From assembly GCF_000014265.1 (NCBI RefSeq), contig NC_008312.1, forward strand, positions 2,970,001-3,002,000: DNA of 32,000 bases, read 5' to 3'. Under the pieces are notes generated by a model. That model saw nothing but the letters and a program-made list of their open reading frames with translations, was not told the DNA's origin and made no database searches. The position numbers and the translations under genes were made by a program. Position 1 is the stretch's first letter. Every line of letters starts with the position of its first letter. Source of the stretch: Trichodesmium erythraeum IMS101 (lineage in GTDB: Bacteria > Cyanobacteriota > Cyanobacteriia > Cyanobacteriales > Microcoleaceae). Of the stretch, positions 2,571-30,205 are shown piece by piece.

Positions 2571-4394
2571 ATGTCTTCCCTAAACAAATTGATCCAAAAA
2601 TTCACTCATCACAAAAATTGGCCCTTCAGATTAATAATATTAACAATTGCTTCAATAGCGATCGCCTGCAACAACATCAAAACCCCCACCACAACCTCAG
2701 AAACACTCACCGCTCCCGAAACAGATACTTTAGTTTGGGCTAGATATAAAGACTCCGACACCCTTGACCCCCACAAAACAACATCACCCTTATCCAGACA
2801 AATAATAGACCAAATCTACGATACCCTGCTTACTTTCGACGACCAAGGCAAAATTCAACCTAACCTAGCCAAAGAATGGTCAGTCAACGACAATGGCCAA
2901 GAATATACCTTCAAACTCAACGAAAACATCAAATGCCACGACGGCAAAACCTTTAACGCTAATGCCGTAAAATTTACCATAGACAGAGCCATAGACCCCG
3001 AAACAGAAAATAACATCAAAGACAGTTGGGGGCCAATAGAAACAGTAGAAGTCGTAGACGATCTGACAGTTAAAGTAAAAATGACTGAACCCTTTAGCCC
3101 TTTTCCTCGTTTTCTAGCCGACCCTTACTCTAGCATGATTTGTCCCTCAGCCATAAAAACTTACAACAACAAATTTGGTATAGACGGAGTCATAGGTACA
3201 GGTCCTTTTGAATTTGTAGAATGGACTCAAGGGGAACAACTTGTACTGAAAGCTAACCCAAACTACAAAAATTATGGGAGACCCGTAGAAAATTCTGGAA
3301 CTCCTTATATCAAGAAATTAGTAATAAAAACCATTCCGGAAATAGAAGCTCGTTTAGCAGGTATTAATTCTGGAAAAATTCATTTAACTGAACCTCCAAT
3401 AGCAGAAATTTCTAATCTAAAGCAAGACTCTAATTTAAAACTTTATACTGCTAAAAATACTGGGCAAATAGTATTTTTAGAATTCGTTACTTCTCGAGCG
3501 CCTTTCAATAAAAAAAAGGCAAGACAAGCAATAGCTTATGGAATAGATGTGAAAAAAGCAACAGAAGAAATCTTAGCAAATTTAGCTAAACCTGCAGAAT
3601 GTCCCATCGTCAATGTTATGTTCCCTAATGATGGTAAACTTTGTTCAGAGTTTAGTATTAAACCAGACCCAGAAAAGGCAAAAACCCTACTAAAAGAACT
3701 TGGTTATAGTAAAGATAAACCATTAGAAGTAACTCTCCTAACTTGGAAAGGAGGAAACCGTGAAAAAATCCTCGAAAATTTTCAAACTCAACTAAAAGTT
3801 GTGGGAATAAAAGCCAATTTAGAGACAATGGATATTGGCAGTCTGAATGCCAGAATAAAACAGGAGAATAGTCAAGCAGAAGGCAGAGGTGTTATTGATA
3901 TGATGGGATGGTCTTGGTACGACCCAGATTTTCTTTATAAATTGTGGCATTCTCCCGGTTGGATGGGAGGTTATCACAGTGATGAACTTGATAAATTACT
4001 AACAGAAATGCGCACTGCAACTAATTCTAAAGAACAGCAAGAAAAAGTTGTGGCAGTTCAAAAATATTTGCTTAATAATGCTGTGATGGTGCCACTTTAT
4101 AGTCCTGGTTGGATGTGGAATTATGTTAGTAGTTTGAATGTAGAAGGTTTTAATATTGGAGCTTTTAATCGACCTTTATTTAATGATATAAAATTATCGA
4201 CTACTACGGAAAAAAAAGAAGGATTTCAGTCTCCTGCAAGTTCTGAAAAAGAAGTAGTAGAGGAGAAAATTAATTCAGAAAAAAATATCAAAAATAAAGA
4301 TTCTGTCTCTGAAAAAGAAGTAATAGAAGAGGAAGTTAATTCAGAAAAAAATATCAAAAATAAAGATTCTGTTGCTTCTCCAGAAAATGAATAG
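2571..4394 (+). CDS. ABC transporter substrate-binding lipoprotein, family 5 (oligopeptide/nickel type)
   Basis: The 607-aa ORF has an N-terminal hydrophobic segment with a lipobox-like IAIAC. The core (LAKEWSVNDNGQEYTFKLNENIKCHDGKTFNANAVKFTIDR, GTGPFEFVEW) is typical of SBP_bac_5. It has an unusual charged repeat tail. Confidence 0.85.
   Translation: MSSLNKLIQKFTHHKNWPFRLIILTIASIAIACNNIKTPTTTSETLTAPETDTLVWARYKDSDTLDPHKTTSPLSRQIIDQIYDTLLTFDDQGKIQPNLAKEWSVNDNGQEYTFKLNENIKCHDGKTFNANAVKFTIDRAIDPETENNIKDSWGPIETVEVVDDLTVKVKMTEPFSPFPRFLADPYSSMICPSAIKTYNNKFGIDGVIGTGPFEFVEWTQGEQLVLKANPNYKNYGRPVENSGTPYIKKLVIKTIPEIEARLAGINSGKIHLTEPPIAEISNLKQDSNLKLYTAKNTGQIVFLEFVTSRAPFNKKKARQAIAYGIDVKKATEEILANLAKPAECPIVNVMFPNDGKLCSEFSIKPDPEKAKTLLKELGYSKDKPLEVTLLTWKGGNREKILENFQTQLKVVGIKANLETMDIGSLNARIKQENSQAEGRGVIDMMGWSWYDPDFLYKLWHSPGWMGGYHSDELDKLLTEMRTATNSKEQQEKVVAVQKYLLNNAVMVPLYSPGWMWNYVSSLNVEGFNIGAFNRPLFNDIKLSTTTEKKEGFQSPASSEKEVVEEKINSEKNIKNKDSVSEKEVIEEEVNSEKNIKNKDSVASPENE
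4242..4373 (+). repeat. In-frame 66-bp tandem duplication (2 x 22 aa) at the 3' end of the substrate-binding protein gene
   Basis: SEKEVVEEKINSEKNIKNKDSV is followed by SEKEVIEEEVNSEKNIKNKDSV. The DNA copies start at 4242 and 4308 and differ at a few bases. Confidence 0.9.
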
Positions 4395-17030: not shown

Positions 17031-17482
17031 TACAAAACTCGGTAAGTTTTATATTTTCAATGTCAATTAAAACCCTATAAATTAAGCACTTATAATCATT
17101 AAAAAAAAATAACATTTCTAGGGATTGTAAAGTACAATTTATATTTCTTAATCCTTAGGGAAAACCCATTAGTCAAGAATCACGTTTACTACCTGGTACT
17201 TTAAGAAAAAATAGGTTAAAAATAAGGTAAATAATAAAGCTTTGTTGCACTATGGATGCCCATAGTGTAAAAATGATAGTACAATATTAAGCCGAATGAT
17301 TCAAATAGGTAAACCTAAGAATTATATGGGTTAAAATCTAGTTACTTTTTGGGGGAGTGGTTTGCCTTAGGGAGTTTGTGCGGCAGCTATATCGCCACCT
17401 TCACACAACAAAGTCGTAAATAAGGTAAAGCTGTCAATAAGGTAAATAAGGTAAAAATTTTTAACAGTAATGTTTTTACGTT

Positions 17483-17627
17483 AAAATTTACCTCTGGTAA
17501 AATATATTTTTAAAATTTACCTCTGGTAAAATATATTTTTAAAATTTACCTCTGGTAAAATATATTTTTAAAATTTACCTCTGGTAAAATATATTTTTAA
17601 AATTTACCTCTGGTAAAATATATTTTT
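17483..17627. repeat. Perfect tandem array, 5 x 29 bp, each unit holding the palindrome TTTACC-TCT-GGTAAA
   Basis: The unit AAAATTTACCTCTGGTAAAATATATTTTT starts at 17483, 17512, 17541, 17570 and 17599. There are no spacers. It lies about 340 bp upstream of the ThDP-enzyme gene. Confidence 0.95.
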
Positions 17628-17913: not shown

Positions 17914-17967
17914 TTTATAATGTTGATTAAGTTTTTAAATACCTTTTATGAGAGGAGAACAATAAAA

Positions 17968-19605
17968 ATGAACACTGCAGAATTATTAATCAAATGCCTC
18001 GAAAACGAAGGGGTAAAATATATATTTGGACTTCCTGGAGAAGAGAATTTGAACATTTTAGAAGCTCTGAAAAATTCTTCAATCCAATTTATTACTACCC
18101 GACATGAACAAGGTGCTGCTTTTATGGCAGATGTCTACGGTCGTCTAACAGGAAAAGCAGGAGTTTGTTTATCAACATTAGGTCCTGGTGCTACTAATTT
18201 AATGACTGGTGTTGCTGATGCTAATTTGGACGGCGCACCTTTAGTAGCAATTACAGGTCAAGTTGGTACTGATAGAATGCACATAGAATCTCACCAATAT
18301 TTAGATTTGGTGGCTATGTTTTCTCCAGTAACTAAATGGAATGCTCAAATTCTTCGCCCTAGTAATACACCAGAAATTGTTCGCAAAGCATTTAAAGTAG
18401 CTCAACAAGAAAAACCTGGTGCGATTCATATCGACCTACCAGAAAACATTGCAGCGATGTCTGTAGAAGGGAAACCCTTGAAGCAGGACAAGCGGGAAAA
18501 ATCTTATTCTGCTTATCAGAGTATGACCGAAGCAGCAGTGGCAATTTCTAAAGCCAAAAACCCGATGATTTTGGTAGGAAATGGAGCTCTTCGAGGGAAT
18601 GCAAGTGAAATTGTAACGGAGTTTGCTACACGATTAAATATTCCTGTTGCTAATACTTTTATGGGTAAAGGGGTGATTCCTTATACTCATCCTCTGTCTT
18701 TATGGACAACAGGATTACAACAACGGGATTTTATTACTTGTGCTTTTGAGCAAACAGATTTGGTGATTGCAGTTGGTTACGACTTGATTGAATATTCACC
18801 AAAAAAATGGAATCCTCAAGGTAAAATTCCAGTTATTCATGTTGGGGCAAAATATGCAGAGATTGACAGTAGTTATATTCCTATCGCTGAAATAGTAGGA
18901 GATATTTCTGATTCTTTGAATGAAATTTTGCGACGCTCCGAGCGCATAAATCAATTAAGCCCAACTGTATCAGAGATTAGAAAAAGTATGCGCTATGAAT
19001 ATGAGGGACATGGCAAGGATGATGGGTTTCCAATTAAGCCTCAAAAACTAATTTATGATTTACGTCAGGTTATGGGTCCGGAGGATATTGTCATCTCTGA
19101 TGTTGGTGCCCATAAAATGTGGATTGCTAGGCATTATCATTGTGAACGTCCTAATACTTGTTTGATTTCTAACGGATTTGCGGCGATGGGTATTGCGATT
19201 CCAGGAGCGATCGCGGCGAAGTTAGTTTATCCTGAGCGTAAGGTTGTGGCAGCTACGGGGGATGGTGGGTTTATGATGAATTGTCAAGAGTTGGAAACTG
19301 CTTTACGAGTGGGTACTAATTTTGTGACTTTGATTTTTAATGATGGTGGTTATGGTTTGATTGAGTGGAAACAGGAAAACCATTTTGGGGAGTCATCTTT
19401 TATTAAGTTCGGCAATCCAGATTTTGTTAAGTTTGCTGAAAGTTTTGGTTTGAAAGGTTATCGAGTTGAGTCTGCTGCTGATTTAATTCCTACTCTGAAA
19501 GAGGCTCTTGCTCAAGATGTTCCTGCTGTGATAGACTGCCCTATTGATTACCGAGAAAATTCTCGTTTTAGTCAAAAATCAGGTGGTTTAAATTGTTCTG
19601 TTTAG
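17968..19605 (+). CDS. Acetolactate-synthase-like ThDP-dependent enzyme, candidate 2-oxoglutarate decarboxylase of the cyanobacterial TCA bypass
   Basis: MNTAELLIKCLENEGVKYIFGLPGEENL..., HEQGAAFMADVYGRLTGKAG and the ThDP motif GDGGFMMNCQELETA...NDGGYG are present. I chose the start at the ATG at 17968, preceded by GAGAGGAG, not the upstream TTG at 17920. The SSADH gene lies nearby. Confidence 0.8.
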   Translation: MNTAELLIKCLENEGVKYIFGLPGEENLNILEALKNSSIQFITTRHEQGAAFMADVYGRLTGKAGVCLSTLGPGATNLMTGVADANLDGAPLVAITGQVGTDRMHIESHQYLDLVAMFSPVTKWNAQILRPSNTPEIVRKAFKVAQQEKPGAIHIDLPENIAAMSVEGKPLKQDKREKSYSAYQSMTEAAVAISKAKNPMILVGNGALRGNASEIVTEFATRLNIPVANTFMGKGVIPYTHPLSLWTTGLQQRDFITCAFEQTDLVIAVGYDLIEYSPKKWNPQGKIPVIHVGAKYAEIDSSYIPIAEIVGDISDSLNEILRRSERINQLSPTVSEIRKSMRYEYEGHGKDDGFPIKPQKLIYDLRQVMGPEDIVISDVGAHKMWIARHYHCERPNTCLISNGFAAMGIAIPGAIAAKLVYPERKVVAATGDGGFMMNCQELETALRVGTNFVTLIFNDGGYGLIEWKQENHFGESSFIKFGNPDFVKFAESFGLKGYRVESAADLIPTLKEALAQDVPAVIDCPIDYRENSRFSQKSGGLNCSV

Positions 19606-19931: not shown

Positions 19932-21317
19932 TTACCTCTCAATATCTTCTAACACATCCTGAAATGGATTAGAAATGAAAAGGTTATCCATTCGGAAATC
20001 TTTAGCTTTTCCTTCTGCTTGCATCTGCCTGAGAATTGCTGCAGTTGCATTTACTGCTGACTGCATTGCACTTTCAATACAGCCTCCAGCAAAAGAGCAA
20101 TTATTTCCAGCTAGATATACTCATTTGTTGAGTTGCTGGTATTGCTATACCAACTTACTTGTGGCATAGTATTGCTTGAGATAATCTATCTTAAAAACTC
20201 CAGAAATCATTGGCTATTATTTCCAGCTAGATATACTCATTTGTTGATTTGTTGAGTTGCTGGTATTGCTATACCAACTGATTTGTGACATAGTATTGCT
20301 TGAGATAATCTATCTTAAAAACTCCAGAAATCATTGGCTATTCTTGCTAAACAACAGAAGCTAGACGATCATCTTCAGATTCAGAAATAGAATCTAGAGC
20401 AGCAGTTATTGGGCTATCTGAGTCCGATCCTTCCAGACCAAACTGATAAGCTTTATTCAGAAAAAAATCTGAACTCTTACTTGGGTAAATAGTCTGATAG
20501 CTCTCATAATTCCGTGTAGCCATCATCTTAGTGGAATCATCTTCCCAGTTATACCTGATGAGTATATTGAAAGCTGCATCATCTTGATCTGGATAAGGAT
20601 CAAGAAAATATATTTGTCGTGCCAGGGTATCTTTAAGAACGCATTTGATTGCTTCTCCTTCATATTCTGGCCAACCTGTGATAGCTCTACTATTTGCCCA
20701 AGGTTTCGGATCGCTCAAACCAAACATTGACATTGTTTGAGTTTTCTTGGTCTTCTGCCTGAGAGTAGTCGTCAATATCATTCCAACTGTATTTTAATCC
20801 CGGAAAAATTAGCTGTGTAGCAACAACACCGGGGCCAGGGAAATTTTTCTGTCCCAAAGTGATCTCCACCATTTGCCTCCAAAACTTTGGAAAAGTAGTG
20901 TCAAAACAGCTTGGAGTTTTCTGGAATTCTCATCGGCCCCATTTAATTCACATATTTTCTTCTATTACTTTTGAATGTAGGAGAATATGCGCGCCCACCA
21001 ACTAGGACTTGTCCATTTTTTTGTTGGCGAGCTTCATAAATTATGATATCTGTAATTCCTGCTTGATGCAATTCGTAGGTGGCTTTTGCTCCGGGAAAAC
21101 CAGCTCCTATTATGGCAACCTTTATACTTGTATCTGTCACATTTGCAAAAGGAGCAGAATTATCTCGTACTAATTGAGGATAATTATAAACAAAGGTATC
21201 TACCATGGGGGAATATCCCGTATTTAATATGTTTAGTTGCTCTGTTTTTCTAGTAGCTCTTCGACTCTTGGGCTTCAGCTTACCGAAAATACTGCCTACT
21301 CCTCTAAGGGCAGACAA
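19932..21317 (-). pseudogene. Decayed flavin-containing amine oxidase (L-amino-acid oxidase / tryptophan 2-monooxygenase-like) gene
   Basis: The N-terminal FAD fold is present (KVAIIGAGFPGAKATYEL...GGRA). Next comes YVN*MGPMRIPENSKLF*HYF with in-frame TAA and TGA, then FPGPGVVATQLIFPGLKYSW in another frame. The C-terminal FAD motif VYLAGNNCSFAGGCIESAMQSAVNA ends at TAA (19932-19934). An internal tandem duplication is also present. Confidence 0.75.
20101..20340. repeat. Tandem duplication (116 bp plus 124 bp) inside the amine-oxidase pseudogene
   Basis: TTATTTCCAGCTAGATATACTCATTTGTTG...CATTGGCTA occurs at 20101-20216 and again at 20217-20340. The second copy carries an extra 8-bp ATTTGTTG duplication and a few substitutions. 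Confidence 0.9.
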
Positions 21318-21634: not shown

Positions 21635-22084
21635 ACCTACTCAAACTTAAAATATTTGGGAGTGCTAATGGTCAGCTTATAAAAAATTAGAAAGAAAAAA
21701 GTCATTTACCAAAAATACCTTTTTTTGAGGTTTGTCTGATTTTTTTTAGCATCATATTTGAGCAAATATTCGTTAGCGATCGCTACCTACTCAAACTTAA
21801 AATATTTGGGAGTGCTAATGGTCAGCTTATAAAAAATTAGAAAGAAAAAAGTCATTTACCAAAAATACCCTTTTTTGAGGTTTGTCTGATTTTTTTTAGC
21901 ATTATATTTGAGCAAATATTCGTTAGCGATCGCTACCTACTCAAACTTAAAATATTTGGGAGTGCTAATGGTCAGCTTATAAAAAATTAGAAAGAAAAAA
22001 GTCATTTACCAAAAATACCCTTTTTTGAGGTTTGTCTGATTTTTTTTAGCATCATATTTGAGCAAATATTCGTTAGCGATCGCT
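21635..22084. repeat. Tandem triplication, 3 x 150 bp, of the dndD 3' end (last ~26 codons plus stop) and its ~71-bp 3' flank
   Basis: AGTGCTAATG recurs at 21661, 21811 and 21961. The copies differ by single substitutions (21720 T vs C; ATCATA vs ATTATA). Each junction falls just after a HIP1 site (GCGATCGCT|ACCTAC). Confidence 0.95.
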
Positions 22085-23988
22085 TCTAAATTACGTAGAT
22101 TTTCTACTTCTGATTTACTAATCTCAGTATCAGTAGAAAACAGAATAACTTGATGACTAGCAGCAGGGAAATAACGTTCAACTAAATTTTGACGATGAGA
22201 AGAATCTAACCTACCTAGAGGTGTATCAATAGCCACAGGTAAACGTCTACCAGAAACCCTTGCCAACCCCCATAAAAAAGAAATTGCCAAAAGTTGTTTT
22301 TCCCCTGCAGATATTCGATTTTTAGGAACAAGTTGCCCTTGATTATTATAGAGAAAAAGGGTAAAATTATCAGTATCAATAGCCACGCGATGAACTAAGT
22401 CTGATTTATGCAAAAGATAACGGAAACATTCAGTTACTTCTCTTTCTAATTTATTCAGCTTTTTCAGGGTTAACTTATGTTTAAATAGCTGTAAAGTCTG
22501 CTTAACTTTTGCAGAAGAATTAATTATATGTTGAATATTGTGACGTTCGATAGTTTCGTCAGTATAACTCAACAATTCTTTCTTAGTTTGAGTAATAGCA
22601 TCCTCTAATTTTTTAGAATCACGCTTACTATTTTCATAAGCAACTTCTGCCCTTGCTAACTCAGTTTGTGACTCTTGCAAAGTAGTTGCTAAAATTTCAT
22701 AAGCTTCTGGGGGTGCTGCAGCTGCCAATTGCTTTTCCAAAATATCTATCTCTACTTCAAAATCTTTCAGACGAGTTAAACTTTCCCGGGCACTTTTAAG
22801 AGAATCTTCAATCTCATAGCGCAATAAATTTTCTAGTAGAATTAAAGTTTCTTCATCAGCGGACAACCAAGGTTCATTAACTTGATTAATATCATCTTTC
22901 AGCGTCAAATTTTCTTGATTGAGAAACTCTTCAATTTTGCTAATTTTATCAGTAGAAATAGATAAATCATCCAGATAATTAAGTAGACGTTTATCTCTTT
23001 CCTGAAAAGCATCCAAAGCAATTTCTGCTTCATGGCGTAAAATTTCCAAATCACCCTGAGAACTTGCTTGTTCCAAAAGTGGAGAAATTAAAGCTATAGG
23101 TAAAGCTCCCCCAGCAAGTTCAACCATTTCCTGACGAGCATTATCCACATCTAGCTCTGTATCTTTCAACTCTTGTTCTAACTGACTCCTTTCCGCAGCA
23201 ATTTTCCCTCCTTCTGAGACGAATTTTCTCATTGCTTTTTTTTGCTTTTGTTGAGATTTTTTTAATTTTTTTTCCAAGTCTATTTTTTTGTCTTTTATCA
23301 ATTCTAAATCTGTTTTTTGCTGATTAATTTTTTGTTCAATTTCCTCTAGATTTGCTATTTCTTTAGTCTTAGAAAGTTGTTTCTTTTTCCGAGTAACTAA
23401 AATATCTAAATCTGCTGCCAGACGTTCCGCTAATTCTAATCCCAATAATGACTGAATTGCATCTACAACTAAAGGTGGTGGTGTTTCTAATTCAGCTAAT
23501 TCTTTTACCTGTTCTCCATCAAATAGAAATAGGTTAGAAATTCCTAAAGGTAAAAGATTTTCTATATATTCATCCCAGGTATTTGCTAAGTAATAATCTG
23601 GCCATTCTCCATCAAGAATTCCCAGAGTATCTTTGCCGTCTTTAGGATTTTTTTCCCAGGTACGAACAATACGATATTCTACAATTTGGTCATCTTGAAT
23701 ATGTTCAAAAGCTAATTCAATACGAGTTTTTTCTGTCGGTGGAGTATTCCGGTTTACGCACTGAGAAAGAAAGTCGCCATAAGTTAAATTTCCCCTAGTT
23801 GAACATTGGGCACGATGACCGTAAAGTGCAAGGCGAATGGCATCTAAAAGAGTAGTTTTTCCTCCTCCATTCATACCTCCAAATAAGATTATAGGGCAGG
23901 GGCGATCGCTAAGTGTAGGGCGAAGGTTTATTGTTTGTTTACCGAAGTACGGTCCGAAGTTTTGTAAGACGAGTTCTAAGAATATCAT
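22006..23988 (-). CDS. dndD: DNA phosphorothioation protein DndD (SMC/ABC-like ATPase)
   Basis: The 660-aa ORF has MIFLELVLQNFGPYFGKQTINL...ILFGGMNGGGKTTLLDAIRLALYG (Walker A), a long central coiled coil, a C-terminal signature (ISAGEKQLLAISFLWGLARVSGRRLPVAIDTPLGRLDSSHR) and VILFSTDTEI. This is the DndD architecture. Confidence 0.9.
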   Translation of the reverse strand: MIFLELVLQNFGPYFGKQTINLRPTLSDRPCPIILFGGMNGGGKTTLLDAIRLALYGHRAQCSTRGNLTYGDFLSQCVNRNTPPTEKTRIELAFEHIQDDQIVEYRIVRTWEKNPKDGKDTLGILDGEWPDYYLANTWDEYIENLLPLGISNLFLFDGEQVKELAELETPPPLVVDAIQSLLGLELAERLAADLDILVTRKKKQLSKTKEIANLEEIEQKINQQKTDLELIKDKKIDLEKKLKKSQQKQKKAMRKFVSEGGKIAAERSQLEQELKDTELDVDNARQEMVELAGGALPIALISPLLEQASSQGDLEILRHEAEIALDAFQERDKRLLNYLDDLSISTDKISKIEEFLNQENLTLKDDINQVNEPWLSADEETLILLENLLRYEIEDSLKSARESLTRLKDFEVEIDILEKQLAAAAPPEAYEILATTLQESQTELARAEVAYENSKRDSKKLEDAITQTKKELLSYTDETIERHNIQHIINSSAKVKQTLQLFKHKLTLKKLNKLEREVTECFRYLLHKSDLVHRVAIDTDNFTLFLYNNQGQLVPKNRISAGEKQLLAISFLWGLARVSGRRLPVAIDTPLGRLDSSHRQNLVERYFPAASHQVILFSTDTEISKSEVENLRNLEAIANEYLLKYDAKKNQTNLKKGYFW

Positions 23989-25125
23989 TTCAGTTATTAG
24001 TTATCAGTTATCAATACTTATCCCACTCAGTATTCGGCTTGAAATACTGAAGTTTATTTTTTGATTCTTAAGACTTACCTTTTTCCTGTAGAAGGTAAGT
24101 CTAACAAATAAAATTTTAATTTACCCCGTGAGAAATTTTTGCCTTTTATCCAAATTTATTTGGGAAAATATAGGTTTACCAGAAATAAACTTTTCAAAGA
24201 AAATTTTATAGTTACTCCTATATCAGTTATCAGTTATCAATACTTATCCCACTCAGTATTCGGCTTGAAATACTGAAGTTTATTTTTTGATTCTTAAGAC
24301 TTACCTTTTTCCTGTACAAGGTAAGTCTAACAAATAAAATTTTAATTTACCCCGTGAGGAATTTTTGCCTTTTATCCAAATTTATTTGGGAAAAGATAGG
24401 TTTACCAGAAATAAACTTTTCAAAGAAAATTTTATAGTTACTCCTATATCAGTTATCAGTTATCAATACTTACCCTACTCAGTATTCGGCTTGAAATACT
24501 GAAGTTTATTTTTTGATTCTTAAGACTTACCTTTTTCCTGTACAAGGTAAGTCTAACAAATAAAATTTTAATTTACCCCGTGAGGAATTTTTGCCTTTTA
24601 TCCAAATTTATTTGGGAAAAGATAGGTTTACCAGAAATAAACTTTTCAAAGAAAATTTTATAGTTACTCCTATATCAGTTATCAGTTATCAATACTTACC
24701 CTACTCAGTATTCGGCTTGAAATACTGAAGTTTATTTTTTGATTCTTAAGACTTACCTTTTTCCTGTAGAAGGTAAGTCTAACAAATAAAATTTTAATTT
24801 ACCCCATGAGGAATTTTTGCCTTTTATCTAAATTTATTTGGGAAAATATAGGTTTACCAGAAATAAACTTTTCAAAGAAAATTTTATAGTTACTCCTATA
24901 TCAGTTATCAGTTATCAATACTCACCCTACTCAGTATTCGGCTTGAAATACTGAAGTTTATTTTTTGATTCTTAAGACTTACCTTTTTCCTGTAGAAGGT
25001 AAGTCTAACAAATAAAATTTTAATTTACCCCGTGAGGAATTTTTGTCTTTTATCTAAATTTATTTGGGAAAATATAGGTTTACCAGAAATAAACTTTTCA
25101 AAGAAAATTTTATAGTTACTCCTAT
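23989..25125. repeat. Type-A tandem array, 5 x 226 bp, starting directly at the dndD start codon
   Basis: TCAGTTATCAA recurs at 24004, 24230, 24456, 24682 and 24908. Each unit holds heptamers (CAGTTAT)n, an 8-bp AU-rich hairpin followed by TTTATTTTTT, a perfect 10-bp hairpin AGACTTACCT-N12-AGGTAAGTCT, and a ~73-bp core shared with the type-B units. Confidence 0.95.
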
Positions 25126-26190
25126 TTACTATTGCACTTTTTCTGTAGAAGTTAGGTCTAACAAATAGATTTTTTTTCAACAAGAAAAAATTTTGGGATT
25201 TCATCTAGAGGATGAACTGAAAAGATAAAATTTCATATTATCTAAATTTATTTGGGAAAATATAGGTTTACCAGAAATAAACTTTTCAAAGAAAATTTTA
25301 TAGTTACTCCTATTTACTATTGCACTTTTTCTGTAGAAGTTAGGTCTAACAAATAGATTTTTTTTCAACAAGAAAAAATTTTGGGATTTCATCTAGAGGA
25401 TGAACTGAAAAGATAAAATTTCATATTATCTAAATTTATTTGGGAAAATATAGGTTTACCAGAAATAAACTTTTCAGAGAAAATTTTATAGTTACTCCTA
25501 TTTACTATTGCACTTTTTCTGTAGAAGTTAGGTCTAACAAATAGATTTTTTTTTCAACAAGAAAAAATTTTGGGATTTCATCTAGAGGATGAACTGAAAA
25601 GATAAAATTTCATATTATCTAAATTTATTTGGGAAAATATAGGTTTACCAGAAATAAACTTTTCAGAGAAAATTTTATAGTTACTCCTATTTACTATTGC
25701 ACTTTTTCTGTAGAAGTTAGGTCTAACAAATAGATTTTTTTTTCAACAAGAAAAAATTTTGGGATTTCATCTAGAGGATGAACTGAAAAGATAAAATTTC
25801 ATATTATCTAAATTTATTTGGGAAAATATAGGTTTACCAGAAATAAACTTTTCAGAGAAAATTTTATAGTTACTCCTATTTACTATTGCACTTTTTCTGT
25901 AGAAGTTAGGTCTAACAAATAGATTTTTTTTTCAACAAGAAAAAATTTTGGGATTTCATCTAGAGGATGAACTGAAAAGATAAAATTTCATATTATCTAA
26001 ATTTATTTGGGAAAATATAGGTTTACCAGAAATAAACTTTTCAGAGAAAATTTTATAGTTACTCCTATTTACTATTGCACTTTTTCTGTAGAAGTTAGGT
26101 CTAACAAATAGATTTTTTTTTCAACAAGAAAAAATTTTGGGATTTCATCTAGAGGATGAACTGAAAAGATAAAATTTCATAATTACTCCT
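25126..26190. repeat. Type-B tandem array, about 5.6 x 188/189 bp, contiguous with the type-A array
   Basis: TTACTATTGCAC recurs at 25126, 25314, 25502, 25691, 25880 and 26069. The period varies with a T8/T9 run. Each unit ends with the same core as type A (TCTAAATTTATTTGGGAAAATATAGGTTTACCAGAAATAAACTTTTCA[A/G]AGAAAATTTTATAGTTACTCCTAT). The last unit is truncated. Confidence 0.95.
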
Positions 26191-26269
26191 AACATCAGGA
26201 AATAAGTTATTACAAAAGTGTGTTGATCACTTAATAACTGAAATGTTACCTAAATATAGGATAAATTCA

Positions 26270-26533
26270 TAATAATTGGTATAACAAATAGATTTTTTTT
26301 CTTCAACAAGAAAAAAATTTTGCCTTTGGCATAAACTCAGAAAAATAAATATTTACCAGATAGAATTGTATCTCTCGGAAAAGCTTTATAAATTCCTAGT
26401 CATTATAGAATTTTATAGGTAAGAGATAAGTCTTAAAAATATAATTTTATTGTCACTATGTGAGTAATTTTTACCTTTTCTCTTGATTCCAAAAAAATAG
26501 AGGTTTACTAAACAATAAAATTCTTGCTTATTC
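26270..26533. repeat. Diverged single copies of the A/B repeat unit next to the dndC stop (older repeat generation)
   Basis: ACAAATAGATTTTTTTTCTTCAACAAGAAAAAAATTTTGCCTTT... and GATAAGTCTTAAAAATATAATTTTATTGTCACTATGTGAGTAATTTTTACCTTTTCTC...AATAGAGGTTTACTAAACAATAAA align by eye with type-B and type-A units with many substitutions. Confidence 0.6.
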
Positions 26534-28090
26534 TCACTCAGTATCTGCCGAAATTTGACGAGAAAACTTCATATTTGCCCAACTTAATTGTTTGATTTTT
26601 TCTGAAACTTTTCCTCTATCAACAGCTTCTTTGAGGTCTCTTTTATTATGAGCATTTTGAATAGCTTCTTCCTTAGAACGAGAACTTGTTTCAAAACATT
26701 GTTCAAGACTTTCATAAATCTTATACCGGTGAGACTTAATATAATATTGCCGTTCTGTGTCTAACAGTTTTGCCATAAGTTCAAGATGCATCTCATCCTG
26801 ATTACATATTTCTTCTAATACTGACCATTCATCACTACCTAAAAGACTCATTCCTGTACCAGGACGACAGTCTTGAAATTCTTCTCCTATTACTTCTTCA
26901 TATATACGAGGTAAACTATCATCAAACTCGTGTTTTTCTTCTAACCATATGCGTCTAATTTCACTAAGTTCTTCTGAAGAAATTAGAGTAATACCTCGCA
27001 TATTTTCTGGAGCATTTTCACGAATTTTGGCTTGAGCTTCTAACAATTTTCTAAGTAAAGTATCTCGCCATTCTTTTTTGTAAGGACCGGGTATTGGTTC
27101 TACAGAAACTTCACCATTTATATTCCGTTCAAAGAGTTGAACTTTTCCCCAAATTCGCCGAAAATCTCTTTTATCTCTGTCAGAAATATCTAGTTCTTGA
27201 CGCAAATTTATTAGAGGTTGTAACCATTCTTTTTCTTCATCATTTTGAATCATTGCTGACATAGATTTATCACTATCTACTAAGGTACAAACCCAACATC
27301 CAAAACGAGAACTTCCACAACTAGGAGTAGAGGTATCAACCACTAAGGGACATTCATTATCTTCTGTTGCACCTCGATACATTGCTAGTAAATCTTTATT
27401 ACTATTTTCCCAAGGATTTTCCCATTGCATTAAATATAGCCAAACTTCATCAGTTCGCCAGTCTTCAATAGGAGTATAAAGCAAAGAATTAAGGAGACTA
27501 GGATGAGGGCTTAGATGGTTTCTTAATCTACCAATTTCTCGTTTATTCATTATTGCTAAACGATTAGCACTTTCTGCTTTACGAGTTCCTAAAACAACTA
27601 TTGTTTCCCCATTATTTCTAACAACATTACGAATAAAAAGATTGGATGGATCTATTTTTAAACGGGGAGTACACCAGCGAAATGTATGACGTGGAGCTGG
27701 GTATCCTTTACCAAGTAGTCCTACCCAGTATGTTTGTTTAACTGCTGGTTTTAATAAATGACATTCTATAGGTAGTTTCTGATTTTTTGCAGACTCTTTC
27801 ATCAACTGTAAAGAGTTAGTTACCCAAGCAGAAACAATGGGATTTTCTACTAATGTATCTGTGGTAATAACGTGGATAGTTTTAATTCGTTTTTTTTGGG
27901 GAAGTTCGGCGATCGCATTCCATATAAGCTGCAATGTTGCGGTACTATCTTTACCCCCTGAATATCCAATAACCCAGGGAATAGAATCTAAACAATATAG
28001 TTCTTGAATTTCTGTAGTTAGCTTTTTTATATCTTCTACTAATTGGGTAGTAGTTCTGCTTGGAAATAAAGATTGTTGTGTACCTTTCAT
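26534..28090 (-). CDS. dndC: DNA phosphorothioation protein DndC (PAPS-reductase-fold ATP pyrophosphatase / sulfurtransferase)
   Basis: The 518-aa ORF has IGYSGGKDSTATLQLIW (SGGKDS PP-loop), WCTPRLKI, and the Cys cluster SCGSSRFGCWVCT typical of DndC. Confidence 0.9.
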   Translation of the reverse strand: MKGTQQSLFPSRTTTQLVEDIKKLTTEIQELYCLDSIPWVIGYSGGKDSTATLQLIWNAIAELPQKKRIKTIHVITTDTLVENPIVSAWVTNSLQLMKESAKNQKLPIECHLLKPAVKQTYWVGLLGKGYPAPRHTFRWCTPRLKIDPSNLFIRNVVRNNGETIVVLGTRKAESANRLAIMNKREIGRLRNHLSPHPSLLNSLLYTPIEDWRTDEVWLYLMQWENPWENSNKDLLAMYRGATEDNECPLVVDTSTPSCGSSRFGCWVCTLVDSDKSMSAMIQNDEEKEWLQPLINLRQELDISDRDKRDFRRIWGKVQLFERNINGEVSVEPIPGPYKKEWRDTLLRKLLEAQAKIRENAPENMRGITLISSEELSEIRRIWLEEKHEFDDSLPRIYEEVIGEEFQDCRPGTGMSLLGSDEWSVLEEICNQDEMHLELMAKLLDTERQYYIKSHRYKIYESLEQCFETSSRSKEEAIQNAHNKRDLKEAVDRGKVSEKIKQLSWANMKFSRQISADTE

Positions 28091-28537
28091 TTTTATAAAT
28101 ATTCTCGAATTTAGTCAAATTAATTTTCTATGATTATGATCTAAATAGGTTCTAGGGATACTATTGTCAGGTTTGTCTTCTAGATTTTTTTTTAATAAGC
28201 AACTAAAGCTGATTATCGTTCAATATTTTTTTTAATTGAATATTGTATGATTCAATCAATTACAGATAGAATAAAATCGGTTTCTTCTTGGCAATACCAT
28301 TTTTTTCTTTTTGTTGATTTCGGTAAAATGTTGACAGTAATGCGCTAATTTTTTTTCTTTTATCCCTTTTTTTTTTAATTATAAAATTAACTATAATAAA
28401 CATATTATTTTGAATAATATCAATATTTATCCCTCATTTTCTATCGGTTACTCTTGACATAATAAATATTATATGATTAGTAAAAAGAACTCTACAATTA
28501 ATTATTATAATAACTCAAAAGTTTTTAAAAACTTTTG

Positions 28538-28566
28538 TTGACAAAAATTTATATATGTAGTATTTT
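28538..28566 (+). promoter_or_regulatory. Candidate sigma70-type promoter of the dndB-like gene
   Basis: Perfect -35 TTGACA (28538-28543), a 17-nt spacer, then TATTTT (28561-28566). The ATG at 28586 lies 20 nt downstream. The promoter sits inside the TTG-extended ORF and so supports the shorter start. Confidence 0.4.
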
Positions 28567-28585
28567 TCAAAAAAAGATTAAAAAT

Positions 28586-30205
28586 ATGTCCAAAAAATTA
28601 ATGATAAAAAAGGCCAATAAACCGACATCAGAAATAGCAAAAGAAATTTTAGAAAATGATAATCGAGAAAAAGAAGCGATCGCTATCCTATTAGACAAAC
28701 ATATAGGCAAAGACAATAGATTATTAGTACAAAAAACCATGATGGGAAACACAGAAGCTTACATTGGTTCGGTCACTCTAGAATGGTTAGATAGTCGTGT
28801 ACGCTTTGCCTCTCAACTACCATTATTTAGGCAAAAATTTGACATAGAAACTGATAATATAATTCGGGATTCAGAAACAATAGATGAAATTCAACAACGA
28901 CCCTTAGACTGGTCTCGTCAAGCTCCATTAACTTTATATTTAGCAACTAGAAAATCCCATAAATTTCCGGCAGTATTAGTAGTAATTAGTCCGAGTTGGG
29001 TAGATAATCCTAAGGCAGAAGAATGGAATAAAAATGGTGAAGCAAATAAATCTGCAACTGATTTTTTTTCCCTAGATTCACAGGGAAAAGTAGGATTATT
29101 AGACCTACGTTTAGAAGTAGCAGTATTTGCCTTAGATGGTCAACATAGACTGATGGGAATTCAAGGATTAATGGAATTAATAAAAACTGGTAGATTACCA
29201 AGATATAACAAACAAAAGAAATCAGTAGGTGCAGCAATTACTATTGATGATTTAACTATAACTCATCAGATTGAATTACCAGAAATACAAAAATTAGCTT
29301 ACGAACAAATAGGAATAGAATTTATTCCAGCAGTAGTAAAAGGGGAGACAAGAGCACAAGCACGACGCAGAGTTAGGTCAGTTTTTGCTCATGTAAATTT
29401 GACAGCAGTAAAATTAAGTAAAGGGCAATTAGCATTATTAAATGAAGATGATGGATTTGCTATTGTAGCGAGAAAAATAGCAATTTATCATCCTATTTTA
29501 AAGGAGAAAGATGGTAGAAATCCAAGAATAAATTGGGATAGTGCAACTGTGGCAGCTAACTCTACTGTTTTAACTACTCTCCAAGCATTGCAAGAAATGT
29601 CTGAAAGATATTTAAAACCTCGTTATCCCTATTGGAAACCTTCAGATAGAGGTTTAATTCCTATGCGTCCTGCAGAAGAAGAGCTAGAAGAGGGGGTAGA
29701 AGAATTTATGGTACTTTGGAATTATTTGTCTAATTTGCCTAGTTATTCTAGATTAGAAAATGGCTCTGAAACTTCGGAATTAAGAAGATTTAGTTTTGAG
29801 AGAAAACCGGGAGAAGGTCATGTTTTGTTCCGCCCTATTGGGCAAATTGCTTTTGCTGAAGCTTTAGGGATTTTAATATATAAAAAAGAATTTTCTCTCA
29901 AAGAAGTTTTTCATAAATTAAATAAGTATGATGTGGATGGTGGTTTGAGTGGAATAGAATTTCCTGACTCAATTTGGTATGGGGTTTTATATGATTTTAA
30001 TCGGAAACGAATGTCGGTAGCTGGTAGAGATTTAGCAATGAGATTATTTATCTATATATTAGGTGGAGTTTCTGACAAAATGGAGCGGGCAGAAGTTCGT
30101 CGGCAGTTGGCGCAAGCAAGACGAGTTGGAGAGGATCAAGCTGTAGATTTTCAGGGTAAGTTTGTCGAATTAAAAAAAGTAGGATTACCTGAAATTTTAT
30201 ATTAA
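28586..30205 (+). CDS. dndB: DndB-like DGQHR-domain protein (ParB-fold, dnd-associated), unusually long
   Basis: VFALDGQHRLMGIQGL (DGQHR motif) and SVFAHVNLTAVKLSKGQLALLNEDD (FxxxN motif region) are present. The gene is divergent from dndC across a 495-bp AT-rich spacer. I chose the start at the first ATG (28586), giving 539 aa. Confidence 0.8.
   Translation: MSKKLMIKKANKPTSEIAKEILENDNREKEAIAILLDKHIGKDNRLLVQKTMMGNTEAYIGSVTLEWLDSRVRFASQLPLFRQKFDIETDNIIRDSETIDEIQQRPLDWSRQAPLTLYLATRKSHKFPAVLVVISPSWVDNPKAEEWNKNGEANKSATDFFSLDSQGKVGLLDLRLEVAVFALDGQHRLMGIQGLMELIKTGRLPRYNKQKKSVGAAITIDDLTITHQIELPEIQKLAYEQIGIEFIPAVVKGETRAQARRRVRSVFAHVNLTAVKLSKGQLALLNEDDGFAIVARKIAIYHPILKEKDGRNPRINWDSATVAANSTVLTTLQALQEMSERYLKPRYPYWKPSDRGLIPMRPAEEELEEGVEEFMVLWNYLSNLPSYSRLENGSETSELRRFSFERKPGEGHVLFRPIGQIAFAEALGILIYKKEFSLKEVFHKLNKYDVDGGLSGIEFPDSIWYGVLYDFNRKRMSVAGRDLAMRLFIYILGGVSDKMERAEVRRQLAQARRVGEDQAVDFQGKFVELKKVGLPEILY

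Follow-up and report, generated by a model that had tools for sequence, protein, structure and literature searches.

A tandem-repeat array between dndC and dndD of Trichodesmium erythraeum has homologues at the corresponding junction of Okeania and Dapis

What kind of sequence holds two genes of a DNA phosphorothioation (dnd) cluster 2.5 kb apart, and does it serve them? The question is raised by a window of 32,000 nt from Trichodesmium erythraeum IMS101 (NC_008312.1, positions 2,970,001 to 3,002,000 of the forward strand; coordinates below count from the first letter of this window), in which 2545 nt (23989-26533) lie between the stop codon of dndC and the start codon of dndD, so that the two genes, both intact, are not contiguous in one operon. 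The gap is occupied by a compound tandem array with two unit types, A and B, and by diverged copies next to dndC. With a confidence slightly above even, we favor the reading that the array is a locus-specific satellite (minisatellite) maintained by unequal recombination and that dndD is transcribed on its own. The main new result is that homologous units are arrayed at the same junction in relatives. The elements concerned, from dndC toward dndD, are the following:

26534-28090, minus strand: dndC, DNA phosphorothioation sulfurtransferase (ABG51187.1; TIGR03183, 5e-206; PF01507)
26182-26533 (352 nt), minus strand: old, diverged copies of an ancestral ~150-nt unit (BLAST to A and B, 72-91%)
~26328-26478, minus strand: D1, an old copy, 64-66% identical to aligned Okeania and Dapis units
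toward 26182, minus strand: D2, a B-like old copy within the same block
25125-26181, minus strand: B array, five full units and a 114-nt partial one (Tandem Repeats Finder, 99% matches)
25125-25312, 25313-25500, 25501-25689, 25690-25878, 25879-26067, minus strand: the full B units (188, 188, 189, 189, and 189 nt)
23995-25124, minus strand: A array, five 226-nt units (Tandem Repeats Finder: 23995-25125, period 226, 5.0 copies, 98% matches)
23995-24220, 24221-24446, 24447-24672, 24673-24898, 24899-25124, minus strand: the A units (226 nt each)
24146-24220, minus strand: first instance of the 75-nt core common to A and B, which recurs 11 times at a spacing of 226 or 188/189 nt
22006-23988, minus strand: dndD, SMC-like ATPase (ABG51186.1; TIGR03185, 6e-204, full length)

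Both flanking genes are orthologues of the expected kind: DndC reaches 684.7 bits with TIGR03183 (cutoff 290.4; NCBIfam equivalog), and DndD 679.1 bits with TIGR03185 (cutoff 245.9) over profile positions 1-650 of 650; the DndD of the window is 100% identical to the IMS101 protein ABG51186.1. The preliminary description of this locus, made from the sequence, had taken adjacency of dndC and dndD as the expected state, which the relatives do not bear out. In every one examined, the two genes are non-contiguous, with gaps of 178 nt to 3.6 kb or with intervening genes. The comparison of the junction in related strains and metagenome-assembled genomes (MAGs), which the same description had proposed, uncovered arrays in Okeania sp. 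KiyG1 and in two Dapis genomes. The 3.6-kb gap of Okeania sp. KiyG1 is a tandem array of 150 nt × 22.5 (82% matches, with a higher-order period of 299 nt). In Dapis M172 (gap 530 nt), Tandem Repeats Finder reports 148 nt × 2.2, and BLAST self-matches and motif spacing indicate approximately three units; in Dapis M229 (gap 571 nt), the unit is also tandemly repeated at the junction, in ~3 copies. Other relatives carry no such array. The Trichodesmium sp. MAG_R02/St5_bin2_1 lineage has a 178-180-nt spacer, and Microcoleaceae MO_207.B10 one of 959 nt; both are non-repetitive and unrelated to the unit, and dndC and dndD are intact in the former. Okeania SIO1I7 has an HNH gene, and no unit, between dndC and dndD, and two genes stand there in Lyngbya.

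The Okeania and Dapis units are homologous to each other and to D1, A, and B of T. erythraeum (BLAST and MAFFT alignment). Over shared columns, Dapis and Okeania units agree at 77%, A and B at 80%, and A or B with D1, Dapis, or Okeania units at 59-66%; between genera, unit identity is 64-66%. Within this alignment, A corresponds to the ~150-nt unit plus ~78 nt from the dndD leader, which stand out as an insert, and B to the ~150-nt unit plus ~40 nt. These alignments trace A and B as well as the old copies to the ~150-nt unit, with A and B forming, within an array that is older, the subfamily of T. erythraeum; the idea that B is a derivative of A is replaced by parallel derivation of both. The alignments show descent from a ~150-nt unit that was in tandem at this junction by the time the dnd clusters of T. 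erythraeum, Dapis, and Okeania split, or that resided in a cassette exchanged among them. The array had also been taken as recent. Its homologues in Okeania and Dapis, together with an A/B architecture common to T. erythraeum-like populations (see below), argue otherwise and indicate that the near-identity of the copies reflects ongoing homogenisation as much as youth.

Among the sequences searched, the ~150-nt unit appears locus-specific, that is, its matches are confined to dndC-dndD spacers. There were none in the window's other 29 kb, none in 177 kb of other contigs of a Dapis-like genome (where only the leader-derived part of A matches), and none in plasmid or phage collections, and exact core words gave 0 matches in metagenome and viral contig collections. 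In species-representative genomes, exact core words matched only three times, in unrelated Bacteroidota MAGs and presumably by chance; that scan did not return the window's own genome, and its coverage of IMS101 is therefore unsure. A dispersed selfish repeat (MITE- or REP-like) was rejected for the unit on the grounds that dndC-dndD spacers alone are matched, in searches that did not scan the IMS101 chromosome directly. Thus, the possibility that the array is a generic repeat present at many sites fails for the ~150-nt unit in the sequences searched, yet it holds for one part of A, a cassette that recurs on 33 contigs and to which we return below.

Within IMS101, the anatomy of the array largely conforms to the preliminary description, which had given the same 2545-nt gap, five 226-nt A units, approximately 5.6 B units of 188/189 nt, diverged copies near dndC, and a common core of ~73 bp. 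The units stand head to tail and are nearly identical: A copies share 96.9-99.1% pairwise identity (BLAST), and four B copies are 100% identical. The core measures 75-76 nt at 96-99% identity between A and B; past it, homology is weaker (84-90% over 30-37 nt). Because Tandem Repeats Finder includes the core that ends the last A unit, its B call (25050-26181, period 189, 6.0 copies) starts before the B array proper. Counted in the phase of A, the five full B units and the 114-nt partial one amount to the 5.6 units described. Two internal variants, GTACAAGG and AAAAGATAGG, both occur in units 2 and 3, as had been pointed out for neighboring copies, and the last A copy stops 6 nt short of the dndD ATG, so that the dndD leader is, as claimed, repeat sequence. 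The proposed age gradient survives in one half only. The copies on the dndC side are indeed old, being 72-78% identical to A and 88-91% identical to a 43-nt piece of B; on identity, however, the youngest copies are the central B units and not the dndD-proximal A units (97-99% identical).

The array looks non-coding. Its open reading frames (ORFs) reach only 34-63 aa, and each restarts with every unit; those on the plus strand contain SVISYQ, a known reverse translation of TAACTGA (PMC4679880), and a coding function was rejected. That unit A carries a duplicated 3′ end of dndC is unproven: there is a shared 10-mer (ATACTGAGTG) and 18/22 matches by eye, and the best local alignment falls on a different segment. 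A CRISPR array was dismissed, as the units abut without unique spacers and no cas domains were found in the ten window ORFs scanned (including all that flank the array). Type III toxin-antitoxin loci (ToxIN-like) consist of short RNA repeats (~36 nt), behind which come a terminator and the gene of an endoribonuclease toxin. They were likewise discarded as a model; the units here measure 150-226 nt, the downstream gene encodes DndD, an SMC-like ATPase, and no terminator was found in the array.

Copies that are 98-100% identical over 2.2 kb are difficult to assemble, and every short-read assembly collapses or breaks at this point, which might suggest that the array, or at least its copy number, was mis-assembled in the IMS101 reference. 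Environmental contigs, chosen by identical DndC or DndD, were compared. The compound order (old copies, B, A, dndD) is retained in independent assemblies (Tara, other ocean samples, and several MAGs), which resolve up to three A and up to three B copies and contain the internal variants of IMS101; the A/B architecture is common to all sampled T. erythraeum-like populations. Nearly all of these contigs have a 100-N scaffold gap or a contig end inside the array, and the dndC-dndD gap ranges from 698 to 1404 nt, of which 698 nt is the minimal collapsed form; short reads collapse the array, and copy number, including the exact count in IMS101, is not readable from these assemblies. Since order and variants recur independently, the array exists in natural populations and is not an assembly artefact, the exact IMS101 copy number being uncertain. 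Together with the homologous arrays of Okeania and Dapis, this makes an artefact highly improbable.

The part of the array nearest dndD contains an element that is also found elsewhere. The features of the leader are the following:

23989-24102, minus strand: dndD leader, all of which except 23989-23994 (6 nt) recurs in every A unit
23990-24015, minus strand: TAACTGA-type heptamers (from the sequence)
~24028-24056, minus strand: short hairpin (minimum-free-energy and centroid folds)
24039-24062, minus strand: 24-mer AAAAAATAAACTTCAGTATTTCAA, ~50-75 nt upstream of the dndD ATG
24071-24102, minus strand: 11-bp hairpin (minimum-free-energy and centroid folds)
24098-24106, minus strand: extended -10-like motif TGTTAGACT, candidate dndD promoter (pattern scan), 118 nt upstream of the dndD ATG

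With ACTGATAACTAATAACTGAA running into the ATG (23988-24008), at least two TAACTGA units stand in forward orientation just before the start codon; the internal A copies end in ...ACTGATA|TAGGAG, without the ATG. The 24-mer AAAAAATAAACTTCAGTATTTCAA is identical upstream of dndD in Dapis M172 and occurs, with conserved flanks, on 33 different metagenome contigs (L034-L066), all from one Dapis-like MAG that carries the label Trichodesmium sp. MO_231.B1. A further copy is found at a non-dnd site of a Trichodesmium contig (L032, 4786-4809), and the cassette is also present on contig L031 (5861-5979). The flanks align into a cassette of ~95-150 nt with three hairpins, the invariant 24-mer, and a (TAACTGA)n tract, in the order TGACC-A6TAA-GGTC, CCTCCCCTT-TTAA-GGGGATG, 24-mer, CAGTA...CCTCTGG-loop-CCAGAGG-TACTG, and (TAACTGA)n. 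A four-helix structure specified by hand pairs 85.8% of cells, compared with 32-50% when the partners are slid, and the inner helix has double (compensatory) changes at 6 of its 7 pairs; RNAalifold on the same alignment, with its gappy columns, gave no structure, and searching ten cassette-bearing loci against Rfam (E up to 1) yielded nothing relevant. Approximately half of the copies precede a gene of the same orientation by 50-210 nt, in some cases with the terminal ATG as start codon (e.g., biotin carboxylase and solanesyl diphosphate synthase), and others adjoin the 3′ end of a convergent gene. Judging by these alignments, the "heptamer and hairpin" part of A is one copy of a cassette, made of hairpins and TAACTGA heptamers, that is dispersed; it is the only part of A to recur at many loci unrelated to each other. 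In Dapis M229 and Okeania, dndD is preceded by sibling leaders whose heptamers differ (CCCTATT and ACTTCTG).

Do the flanking genes show signs of decay, which the repeats could then mark? Synonymous divergence (dS) of dndC and dndD between T. erythraeum and Dapis M172 is 0.18-0.28, that to Dapis M229 0.25-0.42, and that to Okeania 0.48-0.53, and the ratio of nonsynonymous to synonymous divergence (dN/dS) is 0.14-0.27, which indicates purifying selection on both genes and, in turn, an operon that is not decaying. The same follows from the full-length matches to equivalog profiles far above cutoff and from DndC and DndD proteins that are identical across many ocean samples (DndC on 23+ environmental contigs). 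A cluster under loss, as the preliminary description had considered, could be suspected because the window contains neither dndE nor a cysteine desulfurase gene (dndA), and because the SBD-HNH gene that relatives carry between dndB and dndC is missing in T. erythraeum. However, Dapis, Okeania, and the other Trichodesmium lineage likewise have no dndE next to dndD, and the absence of this gene is thus older than the T. erythraeum array. Decay is, on this evidence, barely credible.

A transcribed array is the likeliest alternative. Each unit, or each A unit, would then have a start site, and nested dndD leaders or discrete noncoding RNAs (sense or antisense) would tune dnd expression, with copy number as the dial. 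In the same genome, a 7-unit array has one start site per repeat and start sites are dense in spacers (PMC4143802), and the tandem small RNA NsiR1 of Anabaena, as related in PMC6596454, offers a further parallel. Moreover, the A units copy the dndD-proximal 220 nt including one TGTTAGACT each on the dnd strand (first bases 24106, 24332, 24558, 24784, and 25010), and on the plus strand TTTATTTTTT comes after an AT-rich hairpin in every A unit. However, TGTTAGACT is just as frequent as shuffled sequence would predict, and B units, Okeania, and Dapis have not retained it; between 21400 and 28600, 16 sigma70-like sites compare with 32.7 expected in shuffles, and terminator-like sites show no enrichment there and are missing from the array itself. 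Nor did RNAalifold detect a conserved RNA structure of the ~150-nt unit in either orientation: 27 units from the different genera, doubled so that structures crossing a unit boundary would be seen, gave -0.5 and -1.0 kcal/mol on the two strands. Rfam at gathering thresholds had no relevant match in the window. Two-unit stretches fold slightly better than shuffles (z -1.6 to -2.4) because of the two local cassette hairpins. Finally, lineages with intact dndC and dndD do without an array, and the divergence looks neutral: the between-genus identity of 64-66% is about what is expected of unconstrained sequence at a dS of 0.2-0.5, that is, it does not exceed the expectation from synonymous sites, and selection on the unit was rejected on this basis. 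The sequence evidence for repeat-borne promoters or for a copy-number switch, both raised in the preliminary description, is weak, and we regard a transcribed array as unlikely, although it is a serious contender.

Another notion is that the unit acts at the DNA level, as an iterated binding site for a regulator such as DndB or for a nucleoid or SMC-like protein, and that the resulting nucleoprotein structure would control dndD or mark the locus. Linear blocks do recur across genera without RNA structure (GG(T/G)AAACCT.T.TTTTCCC, AAAGGCAAAAATT, and ATTTGT.AGACTTACCT.CTAC), and the unit is locus-specific. In addition, DndB/DptB represses dnd transcription, a role that is also mentioned in PMC8569181. 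Yet the conservation of these blocks does not rise above neutral expectation at the dS just given, the promoter spacer between dndB and dndC has only weak, low-complexity matches to the unit (69-76%), and the array is missing from related clusters that retain dndB, dndC, and dndD; a protein-binding array is thus quite improbable. A broader functional reading, in which the array is a lineage-specific accessory of the Dnd system, retained at this junction in Trichodesmium, Dapis, and Okeania because its units are transcribed or bound by protein and set the dosage of DndD versus DndC, with a copy number of 3-22 as an evolvable dial, or in which it is a recombination hotspot shuffling dndC and dndD alleles, appears improbable as well.

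Certain observations nevertheless weigh against the locus-specific satellite. A tandem array persists at exactly this junction in three genera, which may speak for function rather than inertia. Neutrality rests on rough identity figures, not on a formal test, and locus specificity does not include a direct scan of the remaining IMS101 chromosome. In IMS101, moreover, intergenic sites account for 26.7% of transcription starts, and the most abundant RNA comes from a tandem array (PMC4143802), so that transcription of units is quite possible.

Under the satellite reading, the history of the array would be as follows. The two T. erythraeum unit types, B with its additional ~40 nt and A with ~78 nt of the adjacent dndD leader, would have been built on the ~150-nt unit, A having arisen when a duplication captured the last 150-nt unit plus the leader cassette. 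Both types would then have been amplified and kept nearly identical via unequal recombination or replication slippage. The array itself may have no sequence-specific function and be dispensable to the gene pair, as it would appear to be for the intact dndC-dndD pairs of sister lineages (MAG_R02/St5_bin2_1 Trichodesmium and Okeania SIO1I7). Its main consequence would be physical: dndC and dndD could hardly be translationally coupled across it, and dndD is most likely transcribed from a promoter of its own in the leader or the last unit, in which case each A unit would carry a spare copy of the leader. In the short-spacer Trichodesmium lineage (contig L068, 4945-5122), an extended -10-like motif, TGGTAGAAT, is found ~25 nt past the dndC stop, which is consistent with an independent dndD promoter there.

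The two flanks of the array differ in ancestry. By dS, dndC of Dapis M229 is nearer to Okeania (0.26) than to Dapis M172 (0.38), and dndD of the same strain groups with Dapis M172 and T. erythraeum (0.20-0.25); these conflicting groupings imply that a recombination breakpoint lies within the spacer or close to it. In MAG_R03-type Trichodesmium, a second type of dndD (88% identical) occupies a different locus without adjoining dndC, with a polysaccharide pyruvyl transferase gene before and a group II intron reverse transcriptase after it, and TAACTGA-type heptamers still reach its ATG.

The gene content of the wider clusters varies as well. Features elsewhere in the window that touch the dnd genes are the following:

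28535-30205, plus strand: dndB-like DGQHR gene, divergent from dndC (PF14072, TIGR03187)
21635-22084, minus strand: separate 150-nt × 3 tandem array (Tandem Repeats Finder, 99% matches), with the final 79 nt of dndD inside its unit

DndE is essential for modification (PMC8569181). No dndE adjoining dndD was found in the 32-kb window by tblastn with two cyanobacterial DndE queries, and it may lie elsewhere in the genome; the gene follows dndD in Lyngbya (at 0.1 kb) and in Microcoleaceae MO_207.B10 (at 1.3 kb). Neither dndFGH nor SBD-HNH partner genes were found near the dnd genes of the window. Dapis has an SBD-HNH (ScoMcrA-like) gene between dndB and dndC, and Okeania KiyG1 and Lyngbya have one upstream of dndC; the 444-nt dndB-dndC spacer of T. 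erythraeum has none.

The array at 21635-22084 puts two pseudo-3′ ends after the real dndD stop. It is present in one, two, or three copies in other assemblies without N gaps (real polymorphism or collapse) and is missing from St16_bin4-tuft/MAG_R01-type contigs; homology to the dndC-dndD unit was rejected (alignment z < 3 versus shuffles). A perfect 29-nt × 5.1 repeat (TTAAAATTTACCTCTGGTAAAATATATTT) at 17481-17627 precedes the gene for the large subunit of acetolactate synthase (17920-19605) by ~290 nt. Both arrays are young and unrelated, and they point to the same local habit within one window. Two direct copies of ~99-124 nt at 20097-20345 (93-96% identical), upstream of a 144-aa ORF (20347-20781, minus strand), represent a local duplication, and a 66-nt × 2 repeat (33-nt sub-period) at 4241-4372 is in-frame coding sequence inside a 607-aa ORF (2571-4394). 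A 124-aa ORF at 20943-21317 has an N-terminal FAD/NAD-binding motif only and looks like a truncated remnant of amine-oxidase type; in Okeania (contig L067), a 683-aa Amino_oxidase gene is located ~6 kb past dndD.

What would these findings mean beyond the locus? The array adds one more case of tandem-repeat expansion behind the unusually large non-coding fraction of Trichodesmium, here at a defined gene junction. As three genera carry this satellite at one and the same junction, in 3 to 22.5 copies, it is tractable for studying the birth, homogenisation, and loss of bacterial intergenic arrays. Long spacers routinely part dnd genes in this cyanobacterial family, and operon-based rules for calling dnd systems consequently misjudge them. 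The dispersed hairpin-plus-TAACTGA cassette may merit study as a mobile 5′ leader element.

Some features of the locus resemble systems described before. The canonical dndBCDE operon of Streptomyces and Salmonella has the orthologues of DndB, DndC, and DndD and the same divergent orientation of dndB and dndC; it differs in having no 2.5-kb non-coding array between dndC and dndD, and in T. erythraeum neither dndE nor dndA lies within the 32 kb. TAACTGA direct repeats just before start codons, with stops in all three frames, have been described and a translational role proposed (MacGregor, 2015; PMC4679880); the main text of that paper does not mention Trichodesmium. The (TAACTGA)n tract of A and the dndD leader is likewise forward, ends 4 nt before the ATG, and stops all three frames. 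The heptamers, however, make up only ~20 nt of each 226-nt A unit, within a longer hairpin cassette that has been copied into a larger tandem unit, and the cassette extends the published observation to a larger structured element that may be a mobile 5′ leader.

For the layout, the tandem small RNA array NsiR1 upstream of hetF in heterocystous cyanobacteria (Ionescu et al, 2010, as cited in PMC6596454) is comparable; going by that citation, its unit consists of a promoter, a small structured RNA, and a terminator, none of which was found in the dnd array, and the likeness is thus one of layout only. In T. erythraeum itself, sufB, sufCD, and sufS are split by long spacers with start sites of their own (PMC4143802), that is, a normally compact gene set is interrupted and its genes are transcribed independently, although the text of that paper does not call these spacers tandem arrays. 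The nearest counterpart is again from IMS101: an array of more than 6 kb with 7 tandem repeats beside Tery_0080, in whose repeats the 3′ part of the gene next to it is duplicated (Pfreundt et al, 2014; PMC4143802). Its units of 736-973 nt each have a mapped start site and give rise to a ~260-nt RNA, the most abundant of the cell (PMC4143802). Both arrays consist of young, near-identical intergenic units that are locus-specific (no similarity elsewhere was reported for the Tery_0080 repeats), and in both a piece of a neighboring gene has been incorporated; here, A takes in the dndD leader and the 150-nt × 3 array the dndD 3′ end. Transcription was observed for the Tery_0080 array, whereas the dnd array is known from its sequence alone; the latter, in turn, is embedded in a cluster of functional genes, and other genera have homologues of it.

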